64,000 bases of DNA from Balanoglossus misakiensis (GCA_040954595.2 CM082588.2:10896844-10960843), one strand, 5' to 3'; numbered from the stretch's first letter, positions 6,597 through 26,668 are shown. Translations and numbers: made by a program. Notes: generated from the letters alone by a model not told the origin.

Positions 6597-6950
6597 TCAT
6601 AGTCCAGTGGTTAGAGCATCAGACCCATAATCAAAGAATCAAGAGTTTGATCCCTGGCATGGTTGTGGTGTTGTGTCCTCTGGCAAGGCAATTTACATCT
6701 CCTTGCCTCTCCCCGCCTATAAGAAAAGGGTAATTTGGTGGATCGGATATTGTAATGTGTATGTATAGGTCTGCTTTGCTGATATAAAAGCTGCACATGT
6801 GAGCTGTTGTTTGCTCCCCATGGAGTGGAATGGAATATTTTAGGTCCAACGACCTAGGTCAAATTACCATGGGAAACACTTCAAAGCAGCACATTGAGAT
6901 TTATTGCATAATGTGCTATATAAGTAATAAATATTATATTGATATTATTA
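6597..6950 (+). mobile_element. tRNA-derived SINE (degenerate)
   Basis: A-box-like tagtccagtggttagagc and B-box-like gagtttgatccc, then gttgtgtcctctggcaaggcaatttac (a core seen in deuterostome SINEs) and an AT-rich tail. Confidence 0.6.
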
Positions 6951-7023
6951 CATAAACAACACTCTTACTTAGCAAAGGAAGTGGTCAGGTGAACTATATT
7001 CGCAGAGCTGACCAATTGTTTAA

Positions 7024-7366: not shown

Positions 7367-7896
7367 ACATGGGGATTAAATGCATATGCGTGTGTATTTA
7401 AAGTTAACTGTAAATCCCCAGGTTAATACGTGGCCAAAAGCACTGTAATTTGGCATTTCTAATGATGGTGAGATGTTGTTTGCTCCCCAGGGAGTTGAAT
7501 GGAATATTTAGGTCCAACATCCTAGCTCAAATGACCATGGGACAACTTAAAGCACGTTGAGATTTAATGTGCTACATAAGTTATAAATATTATAAAAATA
7601 TTATTACATAAACAACACTCTTCCTTAGCAAAGGAAGTGGTCAGGTGAAATATATTCGCAGAGCTGACCAATTCTTTAAGGAAAATTAAAGTTGGGTAAT
7701 TTGGATGTATTCATACGAGTGTTGGTCAATGATAGGAAAGTCCTTTGTTCATTTTCAAAATGAAAACCAAAAATGCGAACAAAACACACTGAATTACGTA
7801 TGGGATATTGATGTTGCCTAATTTGCGTGACTCTACATTTACTTAAACTCTCACAGGGAGACAAATGTCACAGCAAACGGAAAAATGATTATGCTA
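7367..7896 (+). repeat. ~520-bp repeat, copy 2
   Basis: Matches 3268-3790; truncated where the 2-kb duplicated segment begins. Confidence 0.85.
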
Positions 7897-7898
7897 AG

Positions 7899-9867
7899 CA
7901 ATACGCCAACCTTTAAAATATTACTTTAGAAAGTTTGTATTCATACTTTCTTCAAGTTGTCATAACGCTACCCCAAAATGTGTTTAAGTATTGCCTTTGT
8001 ATTAATGGGCTAGATTCATGGCGTTATATGTCATAAATTAAAAAGCCAACCCTTATTGATTTTGATAATATTTATGTCGGAGAATCCACAATGAAAAATA
8101 TGTATTTCAATTTCATAACTCAAAATGATTTTCAAATCCATGACCTTATTTTCAACTCCAGTGATCGTACATCCTGAACCTTGTGCCAGTAAATGATTGG
8201 CCATTACAGGGTTAATGGGCACTCTCCCGTTCTCTTCCTCCGCAGTTTCATTCATGTTCTTGTTTGACGGAAATGGGTGTGACCAGACGCTTGAATGTTT
8301 TCATGTGGGTGTCGTTGTTCATCGGGATCGGTCTCCTGGTGTGTCTGTACAGGTACGCAAGGAGAAACTGCCCACAAGAAGCTGCGAGTGAAACTATTTA
8401 AGGTAGTATGTGCCTCGCGGTCCGAGATTCAGACAAATGATAGTCCTCAAAACTTTTTCAAGTCTTTGATTTACTAAAGTGTATGGTGAGTCTCTTTGAA
8501 AACAACAAAAACATTACTCACCATATTGTTATTTTTTTGAAAGTTTAAAATGAAGTTGACAATGTACCAAACAGATTCTATTTATTTCTTCATGACCATG
8601 TTCACCCCAAGGTCATATGGACCTGCAAGTATATGCCAGAGCCAGAGTCGACATTACCGAAGCCAGAGTTCAAAGCTTGCAGGTCACCCCTTGCCAGCTC
8701 ATGTCTAGCTAAACTGCCATGGATGCCAAGAGATATAGGACTACAGTAACCTGTAGATGGTTTCAGTATGTTTGAAGAAAGTGGTGGCGCACTTTTGGCT
8801 ACATTTGAAATGGCTATGGTACCAGTGGTTGAATTTGCAAAGGTGACCTTTGACCTGGTATCATTAAAGATATTAAAGAACGATTGAACATTCCTTGTTG
8901 TCGTAAAATGACATCTGTAATAACTTATATTTTATCTGTTCATCTTGAAGTACTATATATTTAAACGCCAATTTTCCATTGCCAATCAAGTTTTTACAAA
9001 TAAATTGTAATATGCATGTTGATTTTACAAAAACTCCTTACTTCCAAGTGAATTCTGTTACACATCACGTAAATATTTTCCCCACGAATTCTTCAGTTGC
9101 TGACTCGGAAATTTCATATATTGGGCAGAAATTGGATACATTACCGAGCCATTAAAATTACAGTTTTCTATTTTAATTGATCTTCCATAACTTCAAGTAC
9201 TTTGATTTGACATAAATTAAAAACATCATGGTGAATAAATAAAAAATCTTTGATTATCTAATTGTGCATGTTTACATGGTTTTATTTTAGTATGCTGGGT
9301 ACTTAATGTCTAATTGCTCGCTGATTTTATACTGTTCAAGATGACAATCTAATTTTAGTTTTCAGCTGATAATGGAAATCACTGATTAAAAAAATTGAAT
9401 TTTGTCATGAATAAACTTGTTGTTCATGGCAGTTGCTGTATTTTGTTTCATGTGTATTCAATTTTTGCAAGAATACCATTGAGCACAGTTTGATTTGATT
9501 AAACACGTTTATCGGAAAATTTTGTCATTTGAAATATCTGTTTTTGCGCCCTCTACCATTTGACCAAATGATTCTCTTATTTTGGTGGCCTTTGTCTGTG
9601 TATATGAGAATACTATAGTACTCTCGCATCGATGATAGTAGAAGTTGAAAACGTCTCTTGCCACGTGGCCTAGAAGAAAGGTGATCTTTAGAGTAAAATA
9701 AAACAAACTATCCAGATAGGAAGCTAGAAAAGAAGTTGAATCGTTGAAATTTTATTTATTTTTATATTGTTAATATCGTTGGTGATGTTGACTGGCCGAC
9801 AATCTTTGTCACACCAGTATTTGCAGGTAGATTAAAACATTGCCTATTCCAGCAATAATCACAACAG
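7899..9867 (+). repeat. ~1.97-kb duplicated segment, copy 1
   Basis: caatacgccaacctttaaaatattac ... cagcaataatcacaacag is repeated nearly identically at 24701-26668; the same short ORFs appear twice in the ORF track. Confidence 0.95.
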
Positions 9868-10081
9868 TCTTACTTTTTCTATCTTTGTAAGCGTTAATCT
9901 TTATTGACCTCGCTTGTTGTTTTGTGTTTTTGTGTTGTTTTTGTTTTTGTTTTGTTTTTTTAGTAGTTTCATAATTTTATTTGTATTTTTAAAATGTTTT
10001 CCTGTTTTTTGTTTACTTTTTTATTTTTTTTACTATTTGTTGATTGTAATGCTGTATGGGTCTCGACTGTCGGTCCCAACT

Positions 10082-11378
10082 TGTCATATAATTAGGTAGT
10101 ACTGGAGTCAGTGGAAACCCAGGTGCCCGCATAATTTCAGGTGTAGTGACACCGTGTATTGTCATGTTAATGAATAGGGCTTCGTTAGCTAAGTTTCGTG
10201 TAGTAAGAGAGCACACTTCAATTTAGGTCTTGAAGGGAGCAACAAGTCGGGTCTCCCTGCTCAGTGAGTAGAAATACTAGGGGAAATATTGCACCATACC
10301 TTGCTGTGTCCATGTAATGCTGTAGCGCGCTTTAGTGCTCTCAGGACCACTGTTTCTGCAATTCGAGTGGAAGTAAATTCAGTACTTCTAGAAAGCAGAA
10401 TTGTGCTTATTCAGTGCAAACCGGTGTGGTCGGGCGATTGGCGTGGCTGGCATGGTCGTATGTGGTGTGGCTGGAAATTGCTCCAAGCAGAGTTCTGTGG
10501 AACCATCCTATAGACCCGGTATTGCTGAGCATGAAGTGTGGTGAAGAATTCTCGTGTAAGTAATGTATTTGTTTATTTATTTACTATAACTTAAATTTAT
10601 ATTTTATGGATATTTATGTCAAATTCGACAATTTGTAAGTAATAGGACGGTCATAGTTAAAGCATAATTTTCCATGATATCACATGTAATCATGACGCTT
10701 TAACTAGTCCAAATTTCTGATAATTATTATTGAGAAACGTCAGTATTCATTTGTGAACAGTTGCTAAGGTGGACATTTCAGTCAATGTTTGTTGATTTTT
10801 CATTCAGCCATTTAACCCAAGACTTGCATCTAACAAGTCAGTCTTCAGTGTGTTTACTTGACTACTGGAGGACTACAAGTGGTAGAAAACATGGTGTATC
10901 ACAGATTGTATGTGTAATGTGGATCGTCGCTACATCGTTCATCTATACAGGACTCCATCCCATATTGTGGTTGAATCATGATTGTTTACTATGAATGTTA
11001 TATACAGCTAAGTGACACTTACCATTGTTTAGACAATATGCAATAGACAATAAACTATAGTGATATTGTGAATATATTCATTTATGTAATATATTAAGTA
11101 ACCCATTGTATTGTATGACCAATTGTATCAGCATACCTGTACCTGCTAAATTGGTTAGGACAGAGACATTTGATATTGTGCATATTGTGCACAAAAATTA
11201 TATTCCTAGTATTATCTTTATATTATTTAATTGATTTAAATTAAATCAACTGTATTATTGTATCCGCACTGGTTTGTGTAGTTTCTCCCCATACCTTATC
11301 CACGGATGTTTACTCCTTGGCACTGAGAGCTGCTCAATATTTATCCTGGAATCAGAGGGGTGCCCTCCACCTCTGACA
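10082..11378 (+). repeat. 5' LTR of the Gmr1-like element
   Basis: TGTCA...TGACA ends. The start is also fixed by comparison with the uninterrupted motif gggtctcgactgtcggtcccaact|atagc near 27000. The end is fixed by the adjacent PBS. Confidence 0.8.
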
Positions 11379-11380
11379 TT

Positions 11381-11397
11381 TGGGGGCTCGTCCGGGA
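11381..11397 (+). promoter_or_regulatory. Primer-binding site complementary to the 3' end of tRNA-Pro
   Basis: TGGGGGCTCGTCCGGGA, 2 nt after the LTR terminal CA. Confidence 0.9.
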
Positions 11398-11716
11398 GTT
11401 TTATCGTTTTGTTGTGCATTTGTTTGTATACTATCATAAATTGTTGCCATATAGTGGAGACCATGGTTTTGATAGGTAGAGATTCTGCAAATTGTGAAGA
11501 CGGTGCTGGGTCTGTAGGCTGGTACTGTTACTGTATGTGCGCTTGTGGTTTCCTGCTATATAATATGGGCCGTGTTGGTTTGCGTCGTGCGTTTGGCTGT
11601 GTTGACTTGTGCTGAATGCCCTGTACTGCTAGGGGTTGTCAAACTGGGGGTTGTAAATCGCGATACAGCAAAGCATATATGCAGAAAGAATATCTAAGAT
11701 AGGGAGAAAATTTGGG

Positions 11717-13489
11717 TTGGAAGGGACTGCTTTAAAAGATTATGTTAGAGAGGAACAAATTAGACAGAGGGATCTTAGGGCTACTGAGAGAGAGGAGCAG
11801 AGAGAAGATAATAGGCGGCGCGAGGAACATGAGAGAGAGATACTGAAAATGCAAATTCACTTACAAGAATTAAAATTGAAAGGGGAAAATACAGAACAGC
11901 AGGTTACTGAAAATAATTTGGCCAAAGCGCGTGCTCCGAGACTACAGGGTTTTCGTGAGGATGTTGATGATATGGATGCGTACCTTCAACGTTTTCAGCG
12001 CTACGCCACTGCTCAGAAGTGGGAAAAAGATGACTGGGGGTGAATCTCAGTGCATATTGTTACAAGGTAAGGATGTATCCACATACAACCAAATGCCTGC
12101 AGCGTCTGCAAATAATTATGATGAATTGAAACCAGAGTTATTGAGGGCTTACCAGTTAAGTGAGGAGAGTTTTCATGACAAGTTCCGTTCGTGTATGCCA
12201 CATTATGATGAAAGTGCTCAAAAGTTTATGGACCGTATTGGTGACTATTTGGGCAGATGGGTAGAACTGGCTGGTACTCCAAAGACGTACAATGGGCTTA
12301 CAGATCTGTTACTTCGAGAGCAGTTTATTGGAGTATGTTCCAGAGACATGGCAATGTTCATTAGAGAGCGACGGCCAGAGAATGTCCAAGAGATGGTATC
12401 TACTGCCTCAAAATACTTAGATGCCCGAGGGTGGTGGAAACTGCCAAGTAATGCCAAGAATAATCCAAGGAGCCAGCCGACAGCAAATACCAAGCCTGCT
12501 GTATATCCAAATCAAGTAAATAAGTTTAATAACAAAACCAATGGTTCCCATGTTTTTAAAGGTACGTGCTTCGTATGTGGTAAAGGTGGTCATATGGCCA
12601 AAGATTGTAGAAGTAAGCCAAAGATGCATAAGACGGCGGTATTGTTAACTGAAGAAGATAGAAACTATCCACCTAAACAAGAATGTACACATTGGGGCAA
12701 CCGTCAACAGCCCAGGGGACTAGACACTGGTTATGCATGTATGGTGGTAGCAATGGAAATAGATAAAACAGATGCAACACTGAATAAGGAGTTCGTGTTA
12801 CCATGTGGTCATAAGCTCCCAGTGATGAGTGCTGCTTGTAGTGCCCATGGAGTGAAGAAGATGCCGGTAATGAAGGGATTGCTCGATGGTAAGCTGGTTA
12901 GCGTTTTGCGTGATAGTGGGTGTAGTAGCGTGGTAGTTCGAAGAAGTCTGGTGTCAAGTAATCAGCTGACTGGTGAGTACAGGACGTGTGTTCTGATAGA
13001 TGGGACTATTAGAAGAGTACCTGTAGCCTCTATAAAAGTTGATACCCCTTACTTTGTCGGTGATGTTACTGCACTGTGCATGATGAACCATGTGTATGAT
13101 TTAATACTGGGCAACATTGATGGTGTATCTGACCCTTCGAATCCTGATACTACATGGCAGGAACCATTGCCGACATGTAGACTGTGTACAACTGTTGGAC
13201 AGGTACCAGGTTTAGCAAATGCTGTGGAGACCAGAGCCCAGAAGATAGCCAACCAAAAACCAATCAGAGAGCTTAAAGTACCTAAAGCTGTTGGTGAAGT
13301 GGTGATGCCAGGGAAGCTTCAACAAGCTCAAGAAGAAGACTCCACTCTTGACAAACTACGTGAGAAGGCAATTTTGGGTGACGAGAAAGTGACTAGGAAT
13401 GGAGGTAGGTTGAAGTTCATCATGAAAGATGGGATCCTGTACAGAGAGTTCAATTCGCCAATGGTCCAATTTGGTGAAAAGCTGTTACA
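11717..13489 (+). pseudogene. Gmr1 gag-protease (frameshift near 12040)
   Basis: Coiled coil, DDMDAYLQRFQRYA, SCAN-like DLLLREQF...FIRERRPENVQEM, CFVCGKGGHMAKDC, VLRDSGCS and YDLILGN. The ORF tail after 13489 reads into the inserted transposon. Confidence 0.88.
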
Positions 13490-13531
13490 CACTGCGGGAA
13501 ATACTAGAGCTATGTTGGGCAGTATTCCGCG
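13490..13531 (+). repeat. Left bipartite terminal inverted repeat
   Basis: CACTGCGG, 18-nt spacer, then TGGGCAGTATT at 13516-13526, followed by CCGCG. Confidence 0.85.
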
Positions 13532-13573
13532 AAGCGCGAGCTCCCATGTTCACCATAGCAACGCATTGCCAAG

Positions 13574-14224
13574 ATGGCGGCGCCCGTGTTGATCGATGCC
13601 GAGAAAGTTATAAAACGCAAATTGCGAGAGGCAAAATCTGTGCTTAAACGTAAAAAATGCGTGTCGGACAATCTGTATATACACCCACTCTTTGATGAAC
13701 TTGAGGATGTGACAACAAGGGCCATATTTCGAAACGACAAGCTGTCAAAGGACAAGATTCGTTGGCGTGACGTCGCCGTATTTCCCATGTTTCAGCGTGA
13801 TATGACCTACTGGCAGAAGACCTTCTACGCTCGGCTGTCAACATCCCCGTCGTTAAGGTCACCATGGCAAAGCAGCTTTACACGACAAATGCCGAGGGAA
13901 GTATTTGATGTTTTTCATCAGTTTGCTACTCGGACCGGTTTTGGTATCGACGAGAAGACCTCCAGGGCTATCATAACCTTGACCTTCACAAGTTCCTTGA
14001 AGCTATTGTATGTGATACGGAAAGGTTATTGCTACGAGGGCGCTATCGGTCAGCATACAGAGAATATCCTAGAGAAGAAAGTCCGTGGAAAGAGGGTAGC
14101 TGTTATATTCACACCTGAGAAGCCCTGTGTTGTGAAATATTTTATCAACAGGGAGACTGTTGCTGTTAGATTCAGCTTTGGTGCCTGGAACAAACATGGA
14201 ATCCCATTACATCCAGAGAACTGA
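13574..14224 (+). CDS. Intact 216-aa orphan protein carried by the transposon (putative accessory subunit)
   Basis: Uninterrupted ORF, strong start context ccaagATGGCGGCG, located 84 bp inside the left end; AATAAA at 14353-14358. No motif recognised. Confidence 0.75.
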   Translation: MAAPVLIDAEKVIKRKLREAKSVLKRKKCVSDNLYIHPLFDELEDVTTRAIFRNDKLSKDKIRWRDVAVFPMFQRDMTYWQKTFYARLSTSPSLRSPWQSSFTRQMPREVFDVFHQFATRTGFGIDEKTSRAIITLTFTSSLKLLYVIRKGYCYEGAIGQHTENILEKKVRGKRVAVIFTPEKPCVVKYFINRETVAVRFSFGAWNKHGIPLHPEN

Positions 14225-15076
14225 ACCCTATTGATTTTTCACACTGATTCAACCCATCTGAGGAACATTTTTTTCCTGATCTGTGGCACATGTTGTTCAG
14301 TGTAGATGTATCAGTCTGTCAAGACAGTCCTCTCACAATTGACATATATTCAAATAAAAAAAGGAAAATTAGAAGACTCAAAAATTCATCACTTGTCTTT
14401 ATTTATCTACATTCAATACAAATGAACAGATAATGTTTACAAAATTTCCTAAACTGTAAAATTCTTTTTTTCCATCATTATTGTAACATAGATTTTTCAT
14501 TAGTTTCAGAAAAAAATGTATGTTACCTACAATCAACATTGATAAGTCAATCAAAACTGCTCATCTAACAGTTAACCAGGATTTCTGGTCTAAATTTAAT
14601 TAATATTTACAATTAATTCCATGACAAAATTTATAAATATCAAGAATTTGATGAGACTTAATTCTTTATTTTTTCACAAATTCATTAAAATTTCGTGCAG
14701 GTGCAGAATAAACAACTCCTCAAGAAAAATGTAAAACTTTTCTATCAAGCTTATGTATGTCATACATTTTAATTTTGCAAAGCACTGCAATCACTATACG
14801 ATTAAGGGTTTATTCACAATACTTAATAGTGGTAAGATAAGTTTCAATTTCCCTGTCCCCATACATGCACACATATACAAAATCCCATAAGAAACATATC
14901 ATCTCCAGTTCAAAAAGTGTGAATTCATGTGATTTGTGATCTCCATTTTTATTAAATGCAGCTCTCAACTACAGATGAGTCTTTATAATTCTGTAATGTA
15001 ATTAATACTATAGTTATCCTTTAATTCTAAAGTAGCACACAGTGACACAATCCACTGTTTCAAATTCAATCATTGT

Positions 15077-17317
15077 TCACAGCATAAGTTTCTTGAGTTT
15101 ATTTGATATTTTACCAGTGACAGCTGCTTTTTTTATGTCATCCATAATTGGGTCAACACATATTTCACAGGCAGTCATTGTTTCATTTTTTTAAATTGCC
15201 ACACATACAGTAGCCTGCATTCTCATAATATCGACTGGGAATGTATTTTTCTTTTTCTTTAAGCTCAAATTGACCTACATTTGCATTTCTATAGTTGTCA
15301 GCTTTTGGACTTTTGTTCCTCAGCCAAAAAAGCATCACATATTCGTGTCGAAATATGAGGGCCCACCTATTTTGAGGTGTAGAATTTTCACTGAATTCTA
15401 GCAGGCGTAGATGCTTTGCCTCTCTGCCTTCCATTGTGTTTAGGCCTAATCCCAGACTGAATTGCTTATAGATACTAGTGGTGTGTTTTGGGACTACATA
15501 ACCAATGTGCCACACAGTATTATTGACATTCAGAAACAGGGAATGTAGATTAAAGTACCACCGACACTTATGCCTAAGTACAAGCAAATCTCCCTCATTT
15601 ATGTTGAATCGTGAGAATAACAAAGTGATATCTCTAAGCAAGATACCAGTATATGTGTAGAGAGCTAATTGAGCCCGACGCTTTGGTCTGTCTGTATCGC
15701 TTCTCAATGCTAATACCAATCCTATGAAATGCCAAGCAAGTTTGCGAGACTCCTCACCAGTGAAGCGATAAACCACATTAATGTTGGCATTTGACTTGAC
15801 ACTATTTTCATTGAAGTATTTTACAATCTTATTATACAACTTTCCAGCTTTTACTTGATATTTTAGGGCAGACAGGAATTTGTACAGATATGACTCGTTA
15901 GGTAGATTCTCAATTTTAACTCCATTTTCACGACCCTTTTCCGAAGTGTGGGCAACTGCGTCAATCAGTAATCGTTGGAAGTAGTATTGCCATGCATTGT
16001 TCTTTAAATGCAATGGCTCAGCCTTGGCACAATCAATAAATCTACCCAACGGTGGTACAAATTCCTGTCTTGACCTCAGACTGGCTATAAATTGTGTGAT
16101 TTTGGGTCGCACTGTTTTGGGCTTTCCAGTTTTAATTTTCTTAGTTGACTTCAACTTTTCAACAGCTTCTGCATCTTTAATTCTTTTCTGATATTTCCAT
16201 TCATCCCACTTCTGACCTGGGCCAATTTCTGCTCCAATACAATCAATATCATTTTTGGAACGTTAGCAAATGAGCTGAAATACTTTGCTGCATTGCTTAG
16301 TTCTCCAGACACACTGGCCAATCCCTTCTGATCAAAGGGTAAAAGTGACACCTGAAAAGTTACATCAAGACTGCCAACTTTATATTTACGTTTCTCAATA
16401 CACTCAAGGTCTTTTGACAATGCAATTGCAAATTCAATCATTATGGGGTCATCCTCTTTTATGTTTGCCCCTAATAGGAGAAAATTGTGGTCTGGGCTAG
16501 CAACACGGTGGGTCACATTCAAGAAACTAACTAGCCATGCAGTGGCCTGTCCATGTTTGCCAAACGGAGCCCCGTCAGCACCTATACTGATTTGAAATGA
16601 GCCCTCCTGTTTACCGAACCAGTTAAGAATATCAGGCTGTGTTTCCCCCATATTTAAATATAAACTGGCAATCTTAATAAGCAACTCCTCAGGGTTTCTT
16701 TTTAAGCCGACTTGTTTGCCTTCAGATGATATAATTGGCTCAAGATTTCCAATGTCAAGGTTACTTACATACTGTACAACTTTTGTGTATGGGAGCAGTC
16801 TTGGTATTCTACAGCCAGAATGAATTTCTAATGCTTTCCTAGGATGTTTCAAGTTGGAGAACATCTGAAGTTCACTCTGCCTCAGACAGTTATATTTTCG
16901 TTTGGATAGTACTCCGCCCTCATACATAGTTCTGACACTCCTCACCAAATTGTTCTCACTTTTCTCAAATTTACTGATGTATTTATCAAATACTGATGGC
17001 ATTACTTTTTTACTGATTTGGGGAGAGGTTCTGAAGAATGTTTTCATTTGGTCAGGAGTGGCAGAATTAACAAGAGTATACCACAAACCATCAAGTGCTG
17101 CTTTTGGTGGATGTAGTACATTCGGTTTATTTATACCTTTGGCTGGGCTTACATCTGTAGTTGCTACATGAATATTTATGGCTGCTGATAAGGTTTCACA
17201 CCTACGTTCATACTGTTGACGTCGCGACAGCTTCAAAGATTCACTATTATCTGCACATACTTCAGTGTTCTTGTGGACCCATTTAGAGCGTTTCACATTA
17301 ACAACATCAACAGGAAT
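15077..17317 (-). pseudogene. Main exon of a RAG1/Transib/Chapaev-like DDE transposase (two 1-bp frameshifts, near 16260 and 15190)
   Basis: ISIGADGAPFGK (D1, 16574-16576), LPFDQKGLASVSG (D2, 16331-16333), EPLHLKNN, YRFTGEESRKL and GLGLNTMEGREAKH (E, 15420-15422). Acceptor tctttcag| at 17318-17320. Frame repair joins the 381-aa and 323-aa ORFs and extends to TGA at 15077-15079. Confidence 0.8.
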
Positions 17318-17670
17318 CTGAAAGATTAAGTGTGTGATAAATATATACTAATTAGAATATAATCATTATATATAAAATAAAATCTTCTTACAAGTTAATC
17401 ATTAATTTAAATGTCCTTGATAAGAAATACACACGTGTAGCCTGTATTTTTCTGACAACTTCTGCAATAAAAATCCTAAAAAATATACATAGTTTGTTGG
17501 AAAACCTAGATGTTTTGCATCAAAGCTGAACCCATTTTGTTATCATTGTTTACACAGGATCATGTGACATGAAGTTCAAAAAGCGAATTTGGGCTAAAAT
17601 TTGAAGAGGATTTATACAAATCTGAGATTTTTAAAATTATGACTAAGTCTATTTATCTGATCTAGCTTAC

Positions 17671-18114
17671 CTTTCTCTTATTATTCTTTGTAGCTAAGAT
17701 CTCACAAATCTTACTGTTCTTCTTCTCTAGTCTAGCTAGCTGGGTTGAGGATCTTTTTACTAGTCTCCTAGCTGCACTCAACTTATTCAACTTATCCTGA
17801 ATTATGCTTTCTTCCTCATCTCTCTTTCTCTTTCTCTGTCTACACCACTCTCCTAAGTTAAACCTGTGTTTAGTCTGTCCTCTCTTTGTTCTAACTACCA
17901 ATAGGTTGTTGGCCACGCTCCCAGACAAAGATCTAGTCTTCAATTTCTCCTGATATAGTTGTTGTAAACACTTCTCTTCAGCTACCTGTCTCGCTATCTT
18001 TTGGTCCTTTGCCCACTGGCCTATGTTGAAGTAACTTTTCCCTTTTCTATTCGGCATAACAATAGACAAACTTTTAAGAAGTGCGCTACTCCTGTTGAAT
18101 AGTTTGCCCCACAT
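17671..18114 (-). CDS. Upstream coding exon of the transposase (basic, helical N-terminus)
   Basis: gccATG at 18114. The donor AAG|gtaagc at 17671/17670 splices in phase 0 to the acceptor at 17317. An upstream acceptor ttttcag| lies near 18131, with candidate 5'UTR donors near 18266 and 18834. Confidence 0.7.
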
Positions 18115-18920
18115 GGCTCTAAATCTATACCTGAAAAGGGTGAACAAGAGAAATATCTTTACAATAATTATCTATCCGAGGGAAGCAAAAACAAAACACC
18201 TGCTCATTATACTTCCTCCAGAAATTGAGGTCAAAGGTGACATAGAAAGAATGTGGGTAACCTTACCATAACAATCTCGCCCATTCATTTTTTTCTTATT
18301 TCGTTTTCACCCTCGAATTTCCAGCGAATTATATCAAGAATATATTTTAGCACAAACTATTGGTTTCTGATTTTTCAGTTACGGTCTTATTTTCTGTCAA
18401 TTCTATGAACAATATCACCATGTCGCCGAAAATTCGAAGCGCCGCCATTACAATCAATGTAACCCGTGCTGCTGCCAAGGAACACACAGGGTCGTATATT
18501 TTCGCTTGGTATGATTTCGTCATATTGCTTGTAGCAGCATTTTAAACATGGAATCCTATGTTTACGTATAAAAGACTAAATTCGTATGGTTTTCAAATTG
18601 AAAAAAACAATTCTGTGAAGCTGAATCGTTGTAATTTTTAGTGTTTGTTTATGGTTGCTTAGGACGGCTTCTGCTATAGCAACGGCCAGGGACTGTCAGC
18701 GGGTGATCAAAATGTTCAAGTTATTTGGCTGATACACATAAATAACACAGCAGAATCGCAACTTTATTTCATATTGTCTCTGACATCTTGCTAATTTTAC
18801 TAAACAAAACTTGGAATAAAGCAATATTACTCACCGAATTATGCTGTGCATCGACAGCTGTGTTCGATCGCGAACGCCATTACTGTGTCTAATTAAATAT
18901 TCATGAGCTTCATAGGCTGC

Positions 18921-18963
18921 CACGGAAATACTGCCCATAGGTGGCGTCGTTCAAGCTGTAGTG
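18921..18963 (-). repeat. Right bipartite terminal inverted repeat
   Basis: The reverse complement reads CACTACAG, 18-nt spacer, TGGGCAGTATT (18927-18937), then TCCGTG. Confidence 0.85.
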
Positions 18964-18964
18964 A

Positions 18965-20970
18965 CAGGTGGTGGTTCCCAGAGTGTATCGTAACCAGGTG
19001 ATGAGACTAGCCCATGAATCAGTGCTGGGTGGTCACCACGGAACTCACAAGACCACAGACAAGATCCTCAGCAACTTCGTTTGGCCTGGGCTAACATCAG
19101 ATGTTTCCCGTTACTGTCAGTCCTGTGATTCATGTCAACGGACACAACCAAAGGGACGGGTGACCAAGGTACCACTTGGAAGTATGCCACTAATAGATAT
19201 CCCTTTCCTACGTATTGCAGTAGACCTGGTTGGCCCTATTCATCCATGCACTGAACGCAAGAATAGGTACATACTTACTGTTGTTGATTATGCAACACGC
19301 TATCCGGAGGCTGTTGCATTGACTAACATTGATACCAAGACTGTTGCAGAGGCGCTCCTGGACATCTACTCAAGAGTGGGGTGTCCACGTGAAATTCTGA
19401 CAGATCAAGGAACTCAATTTACATCAGATGTGATGCGTGAGGTCAGCCGGCTTTTGTCTATAAAGCAGATGACTACCACCCCATACCACCCAGCATTCAA
19501 TGGTCTAGTGGAACGGTTCAATGGTACATTGAAACTCATGCTCAGGAAGATGTGTGAGGAACGTCCAGCATATTGGGATCGTTATCTGAATGCTTTACTA
19601 TTTGCCTACAGAGAAACGCCTCAATCGAGCACAGGATTCTCTCCGTTTGAGTTACTTTATGGGAGGAGTGTGCGTGGTCCAATGGCTATCTTGAAAGAAC
19701 TATGGACTGGAGAGATCAGTGAACCAGAAACCAAAACGACTTATCAATACATCCTTGATCTTCAAAAGAAATTAAAGAAGGCATGCGATTTAGCAAGACA
19801 AGAACTGAAGATATCACAAGGCAAATACAAGTCCTACTACAATAGAAAGGCCAAATGGAGGAAGTTCAACAAAGGTGACGAGGTGTTATTGCTACTACCT
19901 ACTGACCATAATAAACTACTTATGCACTGGAAGGGTCCTTTTCCAGTGGTGGAGAAAGCGAGCAATATGGATTACAAGATTGACTTTGGTCATAGGGTGA
20001 AAACATTCCATGCCAACCCGTTGAAGAGGTACTATCGAAGAACTGATCAGCTAGATGAAGTATCAGCTGGACTTCTTGAGATTGTGTGTGTATCTGTGAT
20101 AGATGAGCAGAGTTATGAATCTTCAGAAGTACAAGAGAACACAGGGGTTAAAGTAAACGATGACTTACTGCGGGTTCCTGCATTCAAGCAGAAAGAATTT
20201 GCTGCAGATGTGAATGTATGTGACAACTTGTCAGACATACAGAAGCAAGTGGTGAGGAGGTTGCTGATCAATTACAAAGATATGTTAACTGATATTCGTG
20301 GTAACACCAACCTGGGTTTCCATGACATCAAGTTGATGGATCCAACACCAGTATGCAGTAGGCCATACCCCATCCCTCATGCACTCCGTGAAGCAGTGAA
20401 AGATGAAGTCAAAACGATGATTAAGATGGGAGTAGCTGAACCTTCAGAGAGTCCATATGCTGTTCCACTGGTAATGGTGAAGAAATCTGATGGGTCCAAT
20501 CGTTGTTGTGTTGACATGAGAAAGCTCAATCGCATAACAGTGTTTGATGCAGAGCCTACACCAGACCTGAGTGAGCTTTTTGCTTTTTGCTAAGTTATCC
20601 AAGGATCACTATTTCACTAAAGTAGATCTCAGCAAAGAATATTGGCAAGTCCCGTTGACTGATAATTCTAAACAATTGACGGCATTTATCACGCATGATG
20701 GGCTATACCAATTTATCAAAATGCCTTTCGGACTTGTAAATAGTGCTGCGACTTTTAGCAGAATTATGAGGAGATTGTTAAGAGATATGAAGAACGTAGA
20801 CAACTATATCGATCACATACTGATCCACACTGCATCATGGGAAGAACATATCAAGACAATTACAGATTTGATGAGCAGACTACGAAAGGCAAAGTTAACA
20901 GCGAGACCAACTAAGTGTTATGTGGGTTATGAGCAGATCGATTTCCTGGGTCATGTGGTTGGTCATGGTG
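18965..20970 (+). pseudogene. Gmr1 integrase followed by a truncated reverse transcriptase
   Basis: AHES..GGH...CDSC, IAVDLVGP, TDQGTQF, NGLVERFN and WKGPF, then RT motifs SPYAVP, VDMRKLN, KVDLSKEYWQ, MPFGL and YIDH (YxDD broken). A 7-bp gcttttt duplication causes a frameshift near 20580. Confidence 0.9.
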
Positions 20971-21084
20971 AACTAGTCCTGTTTCAAAATGACCTACATT
21001 ACAGGTCCTATGCACACGTATTACATGTTCTGATTGGTTTATCCACTTCTCTAAGGTCCACTTGCGGCTCGCTGATTGGAGGGA

Positions 21085-21330
21085 CCTTATGTGTTAGGTC
21101 TTATTACTATGTATTATTCACCAGACCTTGTAGGTTAGGTCTTATTACAATGCATTATTCACTTTACAGCTCCCTGATTGGTTAATGTGTAGGTCTGGTC
21201 CTCCAGTGTTCACTGCCTCATTATGCAGGACCTTGTAGGTTAGGTCTTATTAATATGTATTTATTCACCATACAGCTCCCTGATTGGTTAACGTGTCAGT
21301 CTGGTCCCCCCAGTGTTCACTGCCTCATTG
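21085..21330. repeat. Short tandem duplication (~110-bp unit)
   Basis: gaccttgtaggttaggtcttatta...acagctccctgattggttaa...cagtgttcactgcctcatt occurs twice. Confidence 0.7.
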
Positions 21331-22873
21331 TGAAATGTCCCATGTGCTTCCTGGCTAGCGTTGTGGTAACATATTATTCGGGGTGTCCGCAGATCGTTCA
21401 TTGATTTTCTGAGAAATAGCCTAACTGATACTATCTCCAACATAAACCGCACCCTGGAAAGATTAAATGATCTTTTAGGTGGACTTTGAAAATCTGATTA
21501 ACTCATCTAAGCATTTTAGCTAAGTTGTATATTTTTTAATTATAATCATACAAAATACTTAAAAAATAAAAACAATGTTCAGTTTTAATACCCACTGATG
21601 AGGGGAAACATCAGTTTCAAATTCTTTTCATGGGAGCGCTTGAGCAGAGTTATGAGTTTTGCTCTGTGAAAGAAAATGGGGGGATTTCAAAATTTTGGCA
21701 GTTCGGAAGGGGGATTTCAAAATATTTCGGGTTGTGAAAGGGGGGGGGGGCATGTGAAAATTAGCGGTAAAAGATGAATTCCCCCCCCCCCCCCCTCCAG
21801 AGGTGTTTGTGAATGCAGCCTAAGAAAGAAAAAATGTGAAATGGGTCAAATATGGGCCGGACGTGCCCATTCAACTCAATTTACTTTTGTTTGCTTTAAG
21901 TAGGAATTGATCACAGCTATATTTATTTTGGACACCTGAGCGACAAGAAAACAATCTGATTCTACATTTTAAAAAGCGTCATTGGAAAAGCACTGCAATT
22001 TTGTTTCTTGCTTTAAAAAAGTTTGGGGTGGCATGTAATAATTAAGGTGTGTCTAAATTACTAATTTGGTGCACCTCAAAGCCCTTAGCCAATGTAAATT
22101 ATATCCTGCATTGTATTCATGAAGGATATCCTCCCGCGAGGTCAATGCCATTCAATGTCAAACAGTCTCAACAAAGACCATTGGACACTCATAGCCGTTT
22201 TGTATGAAAGTGACTGGAGTACGAGATGAGTTTCATGACAACAACAAATCATGCTCAGTCTCGCTGCAGGGTCTATAATTTCAATAACGGCTAGACGCTG
22301 GACACTATCTTAGGTAACACTTTAGGGTCATAGTGCTGGAACGACATGTTTAAACAGGTCGTTCCGGCACTCTGACCCTTTCGGCCCCAGTCGTTTCAGC
22401 CCCCATTTTCCACGACCCAAGTCGTTACAGCCCGGACAGTAACACCCCAAACATTTCAACACTTATCAGGGAAGACCTTAGCCCAACTATTAAAACTTGG
22501 CTTGAACCTACTTAAGTTCTCCGCATGAAATATGAGCGAGCGTTGTCAGAGGACGACAGCTACGCACACTTTGGGCATGACCGAATCAAACAGAATTGAA
22601 TATTCTATATTCGGAAAAAACACCTTATCTCCGTTTTGCCGTTGACAAACCGATTTCTGTCATGACAGTTACTCCCGGGGACTGTGACAGACCATATACA
22701 GACAGTAGAGGCCGCGCGCTGGGGGTCTACACAAGTCACTACAGCTGATGTAAGCAAGTACAACATGCTTTGCTTGCAGGAATGTTCCATTTTCAATAGA
22801 GGGGTGTGTATATTCAGAGGGAATGTCAGTCGGGGCCCTGGCTGGCAACATGCGGCGTATATATTGACAATCT

Positions 22874-23801
22874 TAGCCGGGAGACCAGGGCGTCGATCTA
22901 AAATACAACGCTCGGGGACAGTCGAGCAAGTCCTGCTGAGCTGAAAGATAGTAGTCTTGGCAACGATCGAGGTCGCTTAGTAACAAATGGATAACGAGTG
23001 ATCTATCAAATGTTGACGGGCGCCAGTGGTTGGATGATATAATTAAAGGCACGTAAGCTGTAACTGGATAAAAAATTAAAGTTTTAAATAATCTCATATA
23101 TGCTTTTAATTATGTCTATTAAATGCTATTTCATGATAATATATCAAGCTCAACACTTATTTATGACAAAATGGCCAAAAATTAAAGAAAAACGAAAATT
23201 CCTGCAATTTTAAAAAAAGCGCAATATTGCAATGAAAAATGAAAATCTGATGTCTCAGTGGTGTACATTTACTTCCATGAGCTCAAGTGGATGAGATCAT
23301 GTTTTGTTTATGAAGTTTCACAACCGGAAATGCAACATTTTCATTGTTTCTTGCATTTTCCCACGGTGGCGGCCATAATCGCTTGCGGCAAAGCTTTATT
23401 ATTTATCTGGTTAAAACTTGCATATGCACTCATACTTAGGGTTTATAATGCTTGTGTATTGTTCACTACCTCCATCTGCATGGACTAATGGTAGTGCAGT
23501 TTGAAACAAAAATTATGAAAATTATCCCAAAAGTTACACCTTACGTGCCTTTAACAAAGCTTGGTTATGAATATTCATACACTTTCAAAACCACTCCCAC
23601 ATCCCATCGCGGGAATTTCACACATGACTCCACCTCTATTTCCTTATTTAGAAGGCGACGATGTCATGTGGTTAACATTGAGTGACCAATTAGCTTACAC
23701 GCAAGATTTACCACACGTGTCGTTCTACGAACAGAATTCTGTTCGTAAATAGAGACTGTCCCCGGGCGTTTCTTTTCCCCGACGCCCTGGTCTCCAGGCT
23801 A
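22874..23801. mobile_element. Non-autonomous AcademH-like element
   Basis: TAGCC...GGCTA termini with ~48-bp imperfect TIRs (ggagaccagggcgtcg...cggggacagtc) and a perfect 9-bp TSD, TGACAATCT (22865-22873 and 23802-23810). Confidence 0.85.
23047..23550. mobile_element. Kolobok-like MITE nested in the AcademH-like element
   Basis: TTAA|AGGCACGTAAG ... CTTACGTGCCT|TTAA. Confidence 0.85.
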
Positions 23802-24112
23802 TGACAATCTCGCTGATAGGCGCAGCTGGAATTTATGTTTCTGTGGTATGATTATTGTATTTTATCAATGCACAATCACGATGGGCGAGTTTCAAGCAAG
23901 CAATTGGATTCGCTTCAATCCCTCACTAAAATCTAGACTGCACCACTGTATAATAACACAATACAGTCTTCTAGCCTCATGGTATAAACAGGAACTCTTG
24001 TCTGCTGGACATCCGTGTACTTTGGTCTACTGAGTGAACGCGTTACGTATAGAGGTAGCGCAAAGTGAAAACCTATTTAAGGCAGCCACAACAATCAGTG
24101 TTGACGTACATA

Positions 24113-24217
24113 CAATCTGACTAAAATCGCAGTTGGTATGACGACAGCATACTAATAATACTGTACCACATAAGTAAAAGACGTCGTCGTACCATACATC
24201 TGATTTTATTCAGATTA
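24113..24217. mobile_element. Small palindromic MITE (related copy at 24478-24586)
   Basis: aatctga..aaaatc...ggtatgacgac / gtcgtcgtacc...gattttattcagatt arms. Confidence 0.55.
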
Positions 24218-24234
24218 CTGCATATTTGCATATA

Positions 24235-24441
24235 CTGTGAAACAAGTTATTTTCGCGAGCAATACATTTTCGCGAGATACGTGAGAGCCAAAATGGTATG
24301 AAAATAAGAGGTCGCATAATTATTTTTGAAGATAACGATGCAGTGAATGAAATAAGAGAACGCGAAAATTAATACTCGCGAAACAGTAGCCTCTCTCGAT
24401 ATCGTGAAAATTTCAACTCGCTAAAATAAAGTGTTTTACAG
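24235..24441. mobile_element. TA-flanked MITE
   Basis: TA|ctgtgaaaca..ttattttcgcgag ... ctcgctaaaataaagtgttttacag|TA, with internal tcgcga repeats. Confidence 0.7.
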
Positions 24442-24477
24442 TAGTTTATGTATGTAAAGTGTTCCTGATGTTAACAC

Positions 24478-24586
24478 AATCTGTTTGAAATCAGATGTAG
24501 GCCTAGGGAATGGCGACGTAGTTTTTTGATGCTGCGACAGCATAAAAAACACGTCGCCGTTCCCTACATCTGATTTTAATCAGATT
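24478..24586. mobile_element. Near-perfect hairpin MITE
   Basis: aatctg..aaatcagatgtag..agggaatggcgacgt..ttttt.atgctg / cagcataaaaaacacgtcgccgttccctacatctgatttt..cagatt. Confidence 0.65.
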
Positions 24587-24700
24587 AGCGTTAACATAAC
24601 TTTATCAGAATAAGTTAACGCCATAACTTTGACAGAATAAGAGTTGCCTCAAACGGCTCTAACCGAATTTCCATTAATAGCAGAACAAACAAGCTGTAAT

Positions 24701-26668
24701 CAATACGCCAACCTTTAAAATATTACTTTAGAAAGTTTGTATTCATACTTTCTTCAAGTTGTCATAACGCTAACCCGAAATGTGTTTTAGTATTGCCTTT
24801 GTATTAATGGGCTAGATTCATGGCGTTATATGTCATAAATTAAAAAGACAACCCTTATTGTTTTTGATAATATTTATGTCGGAGAATCCACAATGAAAAA
24901 TATGTATTTTCAATTTCATAACTCAAAATAATTTTCAAATCCATGACCTTATTTTCAACTCCAGTGATCGTACATCCTGAACCTTGTTCCAGTAAATGAT
25001 TGGTCATTACAGGGTTAATGGGCACTCTCCCGTTCTCTTCCTCCGCAGTTTCATTCATGTTCTTGTTTGACGGAAATGGGTGTGACCAGACGCTTGAATG
25101 TTTTCATGTGGGTTGAGTTGTTCATCGGGAACGGCCTCCTGGTGTGTCTGTACAGGTACGCAAGGAGAAACTGCCCACAAGAAGCTGCGAGTGAAACTAT
25201 TTAAGGTAGTATGTGCCTCGCGGTCCGAGATTCTGACAAATGATAGTCCTCAAAACTTTTTCAAGTCATTGATTTACTAAAGTGTGTGGTGAGTCTCTTT
25301 GAAAACAACAATAATATTACTCATCATATTGTAATTTTTTGAAACTATAAAATGAAGTTGACAATGCACCAAACAGATTCTATTTATTTCTTCATGACCA
25401 TGTTCACCCCAAGGTCATATGGACCTGCAAGTATATGCCAGAGCCAGAGTCGACATTACCGAAGCCAGAGTTTAAAGCTTACAGGTCACCCCTTGCCAGC
25501 TCATGACTAGCTAAACTGCCATGGATGCCAAGAGATATATGACTACGGTAACCTGTAGATGGTTTCAGTATGTTTGAAGAAAGTGGTGGCGCACTTTTGG
25601 CTACATTTGAAATGGCTATGGTACCAGTGGTTGAATTTGCAAAGGTGACCTTTGACCTGGCATCTTTAAAGATATTAAAGAACGATTTACCATTCCTTGT
25701 TGTCGTAAAATGACATCTGTAATAACTTATATTTTATCTGTTCATCTTGAAGTACTATATATTTAAACGCCAATTTTCCATTGCCAATCAAGTTTTTACA
25801 AATAAATTGTAATATGCATGTTGATTTTACAAAAACTCCTTACTTCCAAGTGAATTCTGTTACACATCACGTAACTATTTTCCCCACGAATTCTTCAGTT
25901 GCTAACTCGGAAATTTCATATATTGGGCAGAAATTGGATACATTACCCAGCCATTAAAATTACAGTTTTCTATTTTAATTGATCGTCCATAACTTCAAGT
26001 ACTTTGACTTGACATACATTAAAAACATCATGGTGAATAAATAAAAATTATTTGATTATCTAATTGTGCATGTTTACATGGTTTTATTTTAGTATGCTGG
26101 GTACTTAATGTCTAATGGCTCGCTGATTTTATACTGTTCAAGATGACAATCTAATTTTAGTTTTCAGCTGATAATTGAAATCAATGATTCAAAAAAATTG
26201 AATTTTGACATGAATAAACTTCTTGTTCATGGCAGTTGCTGTGTTTTGTTTCATTTGTATTCAATTTTTGCAAGCATACCATTGAGCACAGTTTGATTTG
26301 ATTAAACACGTTTATCGGAAAATTTTGTCATTTGAAATATCTGTTTTTGCGCCCTCTACCATTTGACCAAATGATTCTCTTATTTTGGTGGCCTTTGTCT
26401 GTGTATATGAGAATACTATAGTACTCTCGCATCGATCATAGTAGAAGTTGATAACGTCTCTTGCCACGTGGCCTGGAAGAAAGGCGATCTTTAGAGTAAA
26501 AAAAACAAACTATCCAGATAGGAAGCTAGAAAAGAAGTTGAATCGTTGAAATTTTATTTATTTTATATTGTTAATATCGTTGGTGATGTTGACTGGCCGA
26601 CAATCTTTGTCACACGAGTCTTTGCAGGCAGATTAAAACATTGCCTATTCCAGCAATAATCACAACAG
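24701..26668 (+). repeat. ~1.97-kb duplicated segment, copy 2
   Basis: Direct repeat of 7899-9867 with scattered substitutions. Confidence 0.95.

Follow-up and report, generated by a model that had tools for sequence, protein, structure and literature searches.

A Balanoglossus misakiensis transposon with a predicted RAG1/Transib-fold transposase and ends that are probably recognised at two sites

Two transposon ends that share little more than a tip and a short internal box raise the question of what reads them, and whether the distance between the two shared blocks matters for the reading. Ends of this kind are found in the window analysed here, the whole stretch of 64,000 nucleotides of B. 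misakiensis DNA (GCA_040954595.2 CM082588.2:10896844-10960843), in which positions are counted from the first letter. An initial annotation had likened them to the heptamer-spacer-nonamer logic of recombination signal sequences (RSSs) with equal spacers, and re-reading the sequence confirmed both ends as it had spelled them, each consisting of a tip, an 18-nt spacer and a box. The element and its ends comprise the following features.

13490-18963, 5,474 bp: DNA transposon with an ACA flank on either side
13487-13489, no strand: left copy of the 3-bp target-site duplication, ACA, adjoining the left terminus
13490-13497, plus strand: left terminal block CACTGCGG with the CAC tip, 6/8 identical to the right tip
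13498-13515, plus strand: left spacer, 18 nt, its sequence not shared (4/18 against the right spacer)
13516-13526, plus strand: left subterminal box TGGGCAGTATT, positions 27-37, 11/11 identical to the right box
18927-18937, minus strand: right subterminal box, reverse complement TGGGCAGTATT, positions 27-37 from the right end
18938-18955, minus strand: right spacer, 18 nt, 4/18 against the left spacer
18956-18963, minus strand: right terminal block, reverse complement CACTACAG
18964-18966, no strand: right copy of the 3-bp target-site duplication, ACA, adjoining the right terminus

A recount upheld the description of the ends: the tips agree in 6/8 positions, the 11-nt box lies exactly at positions 27-37 on both sides and the spacers are unrelated, while further inward, at positions 38-60, the left and right ends match in 4/23 positions. 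With at most one mismatch the box occurs at just two places in the 64-kb window, one per end (at least two matches anywhere were obtained in 7 of 100 shuffles), and of 200,000 random pairs of 60-mers taken from the window, about 9e-4 had an in-register exact run of at least 11 within positions 9-60. Box arrays are absent; inside the element, look-alikes with 2 mismatches lie at 3 scattered places, none of them near the ends. The expectation that standard TIR finders would probably miss these ends fits the inverted-repeat listing of the window, where the end pair is not among the 25 longest of 103. Could the 11-nt match be a chance event, or the last remnant of a decayed continuous TIR, with no functional second site at all? 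The window copy does show some decay, in the form of two frame breaks in its transposase gene. However, a box of 11/11 beside 4/18 and 4/23 does not fit uniform decay, the frequency of about 9e-4 speaks against chance, and the rest of the element is well preserved, with an intact ORF2 and a transposase 74-75% identical to an intact homologue.

Both ends also carry an inward ATGGCG, on the left at 13574-13579 (positions 85-90) and on the right at 18875-18880 (positions 84-89). The left one is the start of ORF2 and lies inside AAGATGGCG; the right one opens a frame of 13 codons only, followed by a donor-like site, GTGAGT. The pair may be a shared promoter or 5'-UTR element.

Positions 13490 and 18963 are true insertion boundaries. 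The element interrupts a host reading frame, the left part of which (11880-13489) encodes SCAN, zf-CCHC and, by a weak match, aspartyl-protease domains, and the right part of which (18965-20593) encodes Integrase_H2C2 (E 2.4e-20) from residue 3, followed by rve. When the insert is removed, coordinate arithmetic merges the two frames into ...GEKLL-Q-VVVPR..., a junction that is compatible with either a 3-bp duplication or none, the frame alone being unable to discriminate; the duplication is called because of the ACA/ACA repeat and the 3-bp duplications found in relatives (see below). The transposon thus sits in the integrase region of an LTR retroelement, whose LTRs are direct repeats of about 2 kb with 97% identity at about 7895-9867 and 24697-26668, and whose reverse transcriptase (RVT_1 at 20571-21182, E 5e-23) lies downstream of the integrase. 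The domain order of this host element (7895-26668) is gag, protease, integrase, RT; the integrase precedes the RT, yet it is of the H2C2/rve type. Within the 64-kb window the host element has no uninterrupted paralogue. Just upstream of the left host LTR there is a 115-nt direct repeat (6909-7023 and 7565-7679, 93% identity), its copies being 656 nt apart.

Contigs of the same sample yielded one additional left end and no additional right end, the search for further copies of the right end having returned the source copy only. The additional left end belongs to a diverged second copy that aligns with 13515-13628 with 20 differences and 2 gaps, and its aligned part is preceded by GTTTT-CACTACGG and 17 unrelated letters. 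The tip CACTACGG matches the left tip of the window element in 7/8 positions and is in exact register with it; the 18-nt offset is thus the same and the spacer is unrelated (7/18 against 13498-13515 by hand count). From the box inward, window and second copy share about 81% identity. The spacer has therefore diverged far more than the sequence next to it, by faster change or by replacement. In one second-copy contig, 13628 is directly followed by 14175, so that 546 nt are missing; the shorter side of this junction is covered by only 22 letters, and the contig may represent an internally deleted relative that is devoid of most of ORF2.

More distant elements were available for comparison. The search found 263 related stretches, of which 80 loci were kept. 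Motif-free TIR scans of these relatives were noisy and were used solely to find CACGCY tips; the termini of the coral-type relatives read CACGCYGGG. Both ends were located in 12 loci, which represent 8 distinct families, and a perfect 3-bp duplication flanks 5 of the 12 paired loci and 5 of the 8 families (chance 1/64 per pair), the duplicated triplets being TTA, TAG, ATT, GAT and AGC, in one family each. The 50 orientation-consistent ends were reduced to 28 non-redundant ones, from relatives with a protein identity of about 37%, in which positions 1-9 are fixed by the selection. In these 28 ends the relative entropy is 0.6-0.94 bits at positions 23-26 (AAAW), 0.41-0.92 at 29-33 (GGCCA) and 0.37-0.75 at 35-36 (TT), against 0.08-0.5 bits over positions 10-22 and no more than 0.24 beyond position 37. 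There is, then, a second conserved block at positions 23-36 in the ends of distant relatives. The motif G[GC][GC]CA starts at positions 27-30 in 8/28 ends, a count that averaged 0.36 over 2000 shuffles and never exceeded 3 in them. When the window ends are scored with a weight matrix for positions 23-36 that was derived from the relatives' ends only, the best start among 67 positions is 23 in both; the scores themselves are modest, within the top 2.3% and 4.9% of the 14-mers of the window, and since both window ends share one box, their agreement with the matrix amounts to about one test. The exact box pattern was found in none of the 80 related loci.

Comparison of the left and right ends within each of the 8 families gave 97% identity at positions 1-9, 60% at 10-22, 65% at 23-36 and 28% at 37-60. 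As the values for 10-22 and 23-36 are so close, the TIRs of most relatives are near-continuous over about 36 nt, and in L005, L017 and L020 near-continuous TIRs extend over 33-48 nt. A sharp two-block pattern between left and right was seen only in the window element (4/13 at positions 10-22 against 10/14 at 23-36) and in the relative L008 (3/13 against 13/14). The two-block signal is derived mainly from the comparison between families, together with these two elements. The initial annotation had asked whether spacer length is kept while spacer sequence varies, which is what the second copy and the between-family block at 23-36 display, but L013 has one spacer that is 8 nt shorter (its duplication being perfect all the same) and in L032 the two blocks are 1 nt out of register. 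It had also named continuous TIRs in other copies as a finding that would speak for mere decay of the spacer; most relatives do have them, whereas the second copy of the same genome retains tip and offset around an unrelated spacer. The near-continuous TIRs of several relatives likewise speak in favour of a remnant or chance match. As the second copy keeps tip and offset and distant families keep the block in the same register, this explanation is already disfavoured, and we regard it as highly improbable.

By eye, CAGCGGT was noticed at about positions 55-70 in the ORF2-side ends of L004, L008, L031 and L043, and CAGTGGT in L011. Its distance to the tip varies between relatives, and it may be a third conserved element.

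The element encodes two genes, which converge.

15083-18171, minus strand: transposase gene with a predicted RAG1-like fold, in three frames (16253-17347, 15189-16262 and 15083-15190)
within 17662-18171, minus strand: candidate upstream exon of the transposase
13574-14224, plus strand: ORF2, intact, 216 aa, convergent with the transposase gene

Two overlapping minus-strand ORFs, 16151-17347 and 15183-16262, share 74-75% identity with residues 1-288 and 287-643, respectively, of P0001, an uncharacterised 679-aa protein of Ptychodera flava; among 76 homologues of the transposase the best is that of P. flava (75% identity). The frame breaks near 16258 and 15190 both fall in homopolymers, and a Cys-rich C-terminal tail is encoded in the third frame, 15190-15083. 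At 16258 a contig of the same sample shows one additional base, which means either that an open version of this site exists or that the assembly is wrong there. With its two frame breaks, the window copy as assembled would need an intact copy elsewhere for its transposition.

Sequence comparison places this protein in no known family. Pfam returned nothing for the internal ORFs or for 23 aligned transposases, and phmmer and hmmsearch against solved structures gave a best E of 0.37 with unrelated proteins, that is, no sequence-level link to RAG1 or Transib. The structure model, computed from the 23-sequence alignment (pLDDT 86.6, pTM 0.85), points to RAG1: Foldseek gave 49 matches at E ≤ 0.001, and among the matches listed all are RAG1, HzTransib or amphioxus RAGL (best 6dbj_A, E 9.6e-12; HzTransib, E 5.7e-7). 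The VIA-align Z scores are 21.5 for RAG1, 20.1 for BbRAGL, 14.3 for HzTransib and 12.2 for the P element, the next being 6.8, and superposition on RAG1 aligns 459 residues with an rmsd of 3.8 (model residues 46-608 with RAG1 473-1027). In the Atlas, the family's own clusters carry no Pfam family, and their nearest named neighbours are RAG1 and then Transposase_21-type and Plavaka clusters; in protein clusters the family numbers 3,215 at E ≤ 0.001, 2,061 at E ≤ 1e-10 and 680 at E ≤ 1e-30. The acidic residues D181 and E566 (P0001 numbering) are invariant and D262 is present in 22/23 sequences. The transposase is thus predicted to have the RAG1/Transib fold.

Departures from that fold's known members concern cysteines and histidines. 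Between D262 and E566 the 23-sequence alignment has no conserved C-x2-C and no H-x3-4-H; this interval contains only H370, followed by N374, and H545. By RAG1 residue numbers, the lost C(2)C would have its place at the Y/F-F-S-x-F stretch. A cluster of cysteines, C637-x-C639...C650-x-x-C653, is conserved near the C-terminus. At the other end of the protein, the N-terminal helices of the model align with the end of the RAG1 nonamer-binding domain and beyond (model 13-603 with RAG1 427-1003). The N-terminal extensions of the 23 aligned proteins, up to 172 aa long, contain 0-4 Cys, and the candidate upstream exon is Cys-poor as well; with gene models that may lack exons, these counts are what the absence of a Chapa finger refers to. 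In the candidate exon (17662-18171, minus strand) an x-F-N-[IL]-G-[QE]-W motif occurs twice, and Pfam gives the Helicase-associated (HA) domain as a weak hit below the cutoff (E 4e-4). Motifs reading RFPIGEW or RFPIGQW occur at the start of the longer homologues P0050, P0058 and P0060.

We propose, with moderate confidence, that 13490-18963 is a cut-and-paste transposon with a 3-bp ACA duplication, a RAG1/Transib-fold transposase and a conserved second gene, and that its ends are likely recognised at two sites, the CAC tip and the box at 27-37, with a spacer of unconstrained sequence keeping them at a constant distance. The comparison with the heptamer-spacer-nonamer logic of RSSs, with spacers of equal length, gains support from the predicted fold, from the offset kept in the second copy and from the block at 23-36 in relatives. 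RAG1 acts on a heptamer and a nonamer, the latter being read with its nonamer-binding domain (PMC10629977). In the published description of Transib TIRs, a variable spacer of 23 bp lies between a heptamer and a nonamer; the arrangement is mostly symmetric, and there too the two-block signal came from comparisons between families (PMC1131882). In ProtoRAG, according to PMC8289069, 27 or 31 bp lie between the blocks TR1 and TR5, neither of the blocks nor the spacer length is dispensable, and a C-terminal domain aids the specific recognition of the TIR. The claim that the ends are symmetric rather than 12/23 holds insofar as the two 18-nt spacers are equal; it does not describe a new design, symmetric two-block TIRs being the published norm for Transib.

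A mechanism can be sketched by analogy with RAG1, Transib and ProtoRAG. A transposase dimer would pair both ends symmetrically, which is suggested by the equal spacers and by the lack of anything like the 12/23 rule. The CAC tip would be bound by the catalytic core and the box by a DNA-binding module of its own, at a distance of about 2.5-3.5 helical turns set by the spacer. Box reading could fall to the N-terminal helices, whose alignment takes in the end of the RAG1 nonamer-binding domain, or to the conserved cysteine cluster (CxC...CxxC) near the C-terminus. For cleavage the element would take the nick-and-hairpin pathway, as do RAG, Transib and ProtoRAG; insertion would involve a 3-bp stagger, and ORF2 would serve as a putative accessory subunit.

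ORF2 regularly accompanies this transposase. With a distant query, tblastn detected it in 34/80 related loci, in every case on the strand opposite to the transposase gene and downstream of that gene. It is present in 31/36 loci with at least 1.5 kb of downstream sequence and in 34/45 with at least 1 kb, and wherever the end of the element is known it lies inside the element. The ORF2 copies of relatives are intact ORFs of about 200-215 aa, 17-28% identical to that of the window. The sole close pair gave a dN/dS of 0.33, while in 7/8 pairs dS is saturated (dN 0.38-0.83); to judge from these sequences, ORF2 shows signs of purifying selection. It has 96 homologous proteins (P0077-P0172), 95 of which carry the precomputed Pfam accession PF26709, an accession that is not mentioned in the literature searched. 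The local Pfam copy, which does not include PF26709, gave no named family, and no solved relatives were found. The structure model (pLDDT 79.8) consists of a long helical hairpin and a compact alpha/beta domain. Searched as a whole model, it gave a best Foldseek E of 0.026, and VIA-align matched only the N-terminal helical hairpin (Z up to 7.8, generic); as both searches were made with the whole model, we make no claim of a new fold. A weak lead comes from the Atlas, where ORF2 is near Argonaute N/L1/PAZ-like clusters (0.93; recognition 1361, 140 shared features).

Such a partner could itself be the protein that reads the box, as a sequence-specific end-binding accessory protein, leaving the transposase to recognise the CAC tip only. 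En/Spm offers a model for this division of labour: its TnpA is an end-binding protein, and its ends carry arrays of subterminal motifs. The association of ORF2 with the transposase gene in 31/36 suitable loci, its integrity across families at 17-28% identity together with the signs of purifying selection, and a model composed of a helical hairpin and an alpha/beta domain with no assigned function are all consistent with a role of this kind, as is the requirement of BbRAG1L for a partner protein in cleavage (PMC8289069). The window element, however, has one box per end and no subterminal arrays of the En/Spm type, and ORF2 matches no DNA-binding family or fold, which makes box reading by ORF2 rather unlikely in our estimation.

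The box might also be mainly a promoter or a binding site for a host factor, from which each end drives the gene facing inward, its distance to the tip being of secondary importance. Indeed, an inward-facing gene follows each end, ORF2 in the case of the left end and the transposase gene in that of the right end. The TIRs of ProtoRAG act as promoters, its TR5 block, GCCATCTTG, being bound by YY1, which also helps RAGL to recognise the ProtoRAG TIR (PMC7481187). The motif AANATGGCG is present in 19/28 relatives' ends at positions 56-129, and in the window the left end has AAGATGGCG at position 82 and the right end GTAATGGCG at 81. The box of the window is nevertheless not YY1-like, and the tip-to-box register is kept in the second copy and in distant families, which a promoter element alone would not need. 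We hold a mainly regulatory box to be quite unlikely, slightly more so than box reading by ORF2; as both roles coexist in ProtoRAG, a promoter function need not be at odds with recognition at two sites. The possibility that the second block is, like TR5, a YY1 site in general was considered and rejected: GCCAT occurs at position 30 in 3/28 ends, and CGCCATNTT, with at most one mismatch, at position 29 in 2/28.

Two-site recognition by a RAG1/Transib-fold transposase being the reading that we favour, the element invites comparison first of all with Transib. The two have in common termini that start with CAC, an end made of a terminal block, a fixed-length variable spacer and a second block, mostly alike on both sides, and the RAG1-core fold (DDE, RNase H-like), for which the HzTransib structures 6pqn and 6pqx are available, the agreement being one of predicted fold only. 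They differ in the duplication (3 bp here, 5 bp in Transib), in the geometry of the ends (8-9 + 18 + 11 here against 7 + 23 + 9), in the second block, which contains G/C (GGGCA/GGCCA) here and is A-rich in Transib, and in the second gene of the present element; no sequence-level similarity was detected. Some elements of the Transib lineage are reported to have 3-bp duplications (2026 preprint, 10.64898/2026.08.26.747230), so that the length of the duplication is by itself a weak criterion and does not speak against kinship.

ProtoRAG and other RAGL elements share with the window element a pair of genes arranged tail-to-tail between TIRs, a RAG1-like fold (here predicted; Z 20.1 with the BbRAGL structure 6b40) and a Cys-rich C-terminal tail of the transposase, and ProtoRAG also has two conserved TIR blocks at a set distance. 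The RAG2-like partner in RAGL is a six-bladed kelch propeller (PMC10629977), whereas the partner here, of about 216 aa, is modelled as a helical hairpin with a small alpha/beta domain. Further differences are a 3-bp duplication that is not GC-rich, instead of a GC-rich one of 5 bp; equal spacers instead of the 27/31 bp or 10-bp asymmetry; and a second block that, unlike that of ProtoRAG, is not a YY1 motif.

Chapaev3 and Chapaev, of the CMC group, resemble the element in that their termini are CAC...GTG and their duplication is 3 bp long; they too live in animals, cnidarians among them, have an LH motif and are distantly related to RAG1/Transib (PMC4079192, PMC3014272 and PMC4411706). The consensus given for the Chapaev3 duplication, TWA (PMC4079192 and PMC3014272), fits one of our six duplications (TTA) but not ACA, TAG, ATT, GAT or AGC. 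The C(2)C and H(4)H motifs are absent here, as is a Cys-rich N-terminal Chapa finger (PMC4411706; 10.64898/2026.01.24.700457), within the limits of the gene models stated above, and a length of 4-7 kb with two genes contrasts with about 1.8-1.9 kb and one gene in Chapaev3/Chapaev. As to the wider CMC/CMCT clade (EnSpm, Mirage, Chapaev, Transib and others), the element has its CA...TG (CAC...GTG) termini and a duplication within its 2-5 bp range, whereas the core zinc motifs, C(2)C/H(3-4)H, as defined by Yuan and Wessler (2011) and given in PMC12730594 and PMC4079192, are lacking in the 23-sequence alignment. En/Spm (CACTA) elements likewise have CAC termini, a 3-bp duplication and two encoded proteins, and Transposase_21 clusters are among the Atlas structure neighbours (TM 0.61-0.62 by query). 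In contrast to En/Spm, the 23 proteins and the window ORFs gave no match to Transposase_21 (PF02992) at E up to 1, the ends have no subterminal repeat arrays, and ORF2 is unrelated to the named families of the local libraries. Lanisha, which comes from a moss genome paper, was set aside as not relevant.

A symmetric two-block architecture of the ends, known from Transib, is not new in kind. The lineage itself appears to be undescribed in its combination of a 3-bp duplication, the absence of core zinc motifs and of a Chapa finger, and a conserved partner gene of about 210 aa that is convergent and gave no fold match: in the literature searched, no description of such a family was found. 'Undescribed' here refers to the literature and not to a comparison with Repbase or Dfam, and a Pfam accession does exist for ORF2. 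Short two-block ends evade TIR finders that rank by length, which may partly explain the lack of a Pfam family on the Atlas clusters of a family this large.

RAG1/RAG2 with their signal sequences are the textbook case of a domesticated transposon, and the set of elements with which they have been compared so far consists of Transib, ProtoRAG/RAGL and, distantly, Chapaev. To this set the present element adds a very diverged family of predicted RAG1 fold from hemichordate- and cnidarian-type genomes, one with two-block ends of fixed spacing, another partner gene in the same convergent arrangement and no core zinc motifs. In combination these features provide an independent test of which RAG features are ancestral, such as two-site recognition of the ends and the two-gene unit, and which are lineage-specific, such as the 12/23 asymmetry, the kelch partner and the 5-bp stagger. 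We tentatively advance the broader possibility, which may well prove wrong, that it belongs to a large uncatalogued RAG1-fold lineage that lost the core zinc site and is characterised by a 3-bp stagger, two-block ends and a constant non-kelch partner in a tail-to-tail layout like that of RAG1/RAG2. If this is true, the design of V(D)J recombination, a two-component enzyme acting on a two-block signal, would go back further and reach more widely than the RAG/Transib line, with unrelated proteins having filled the slot of the partner.
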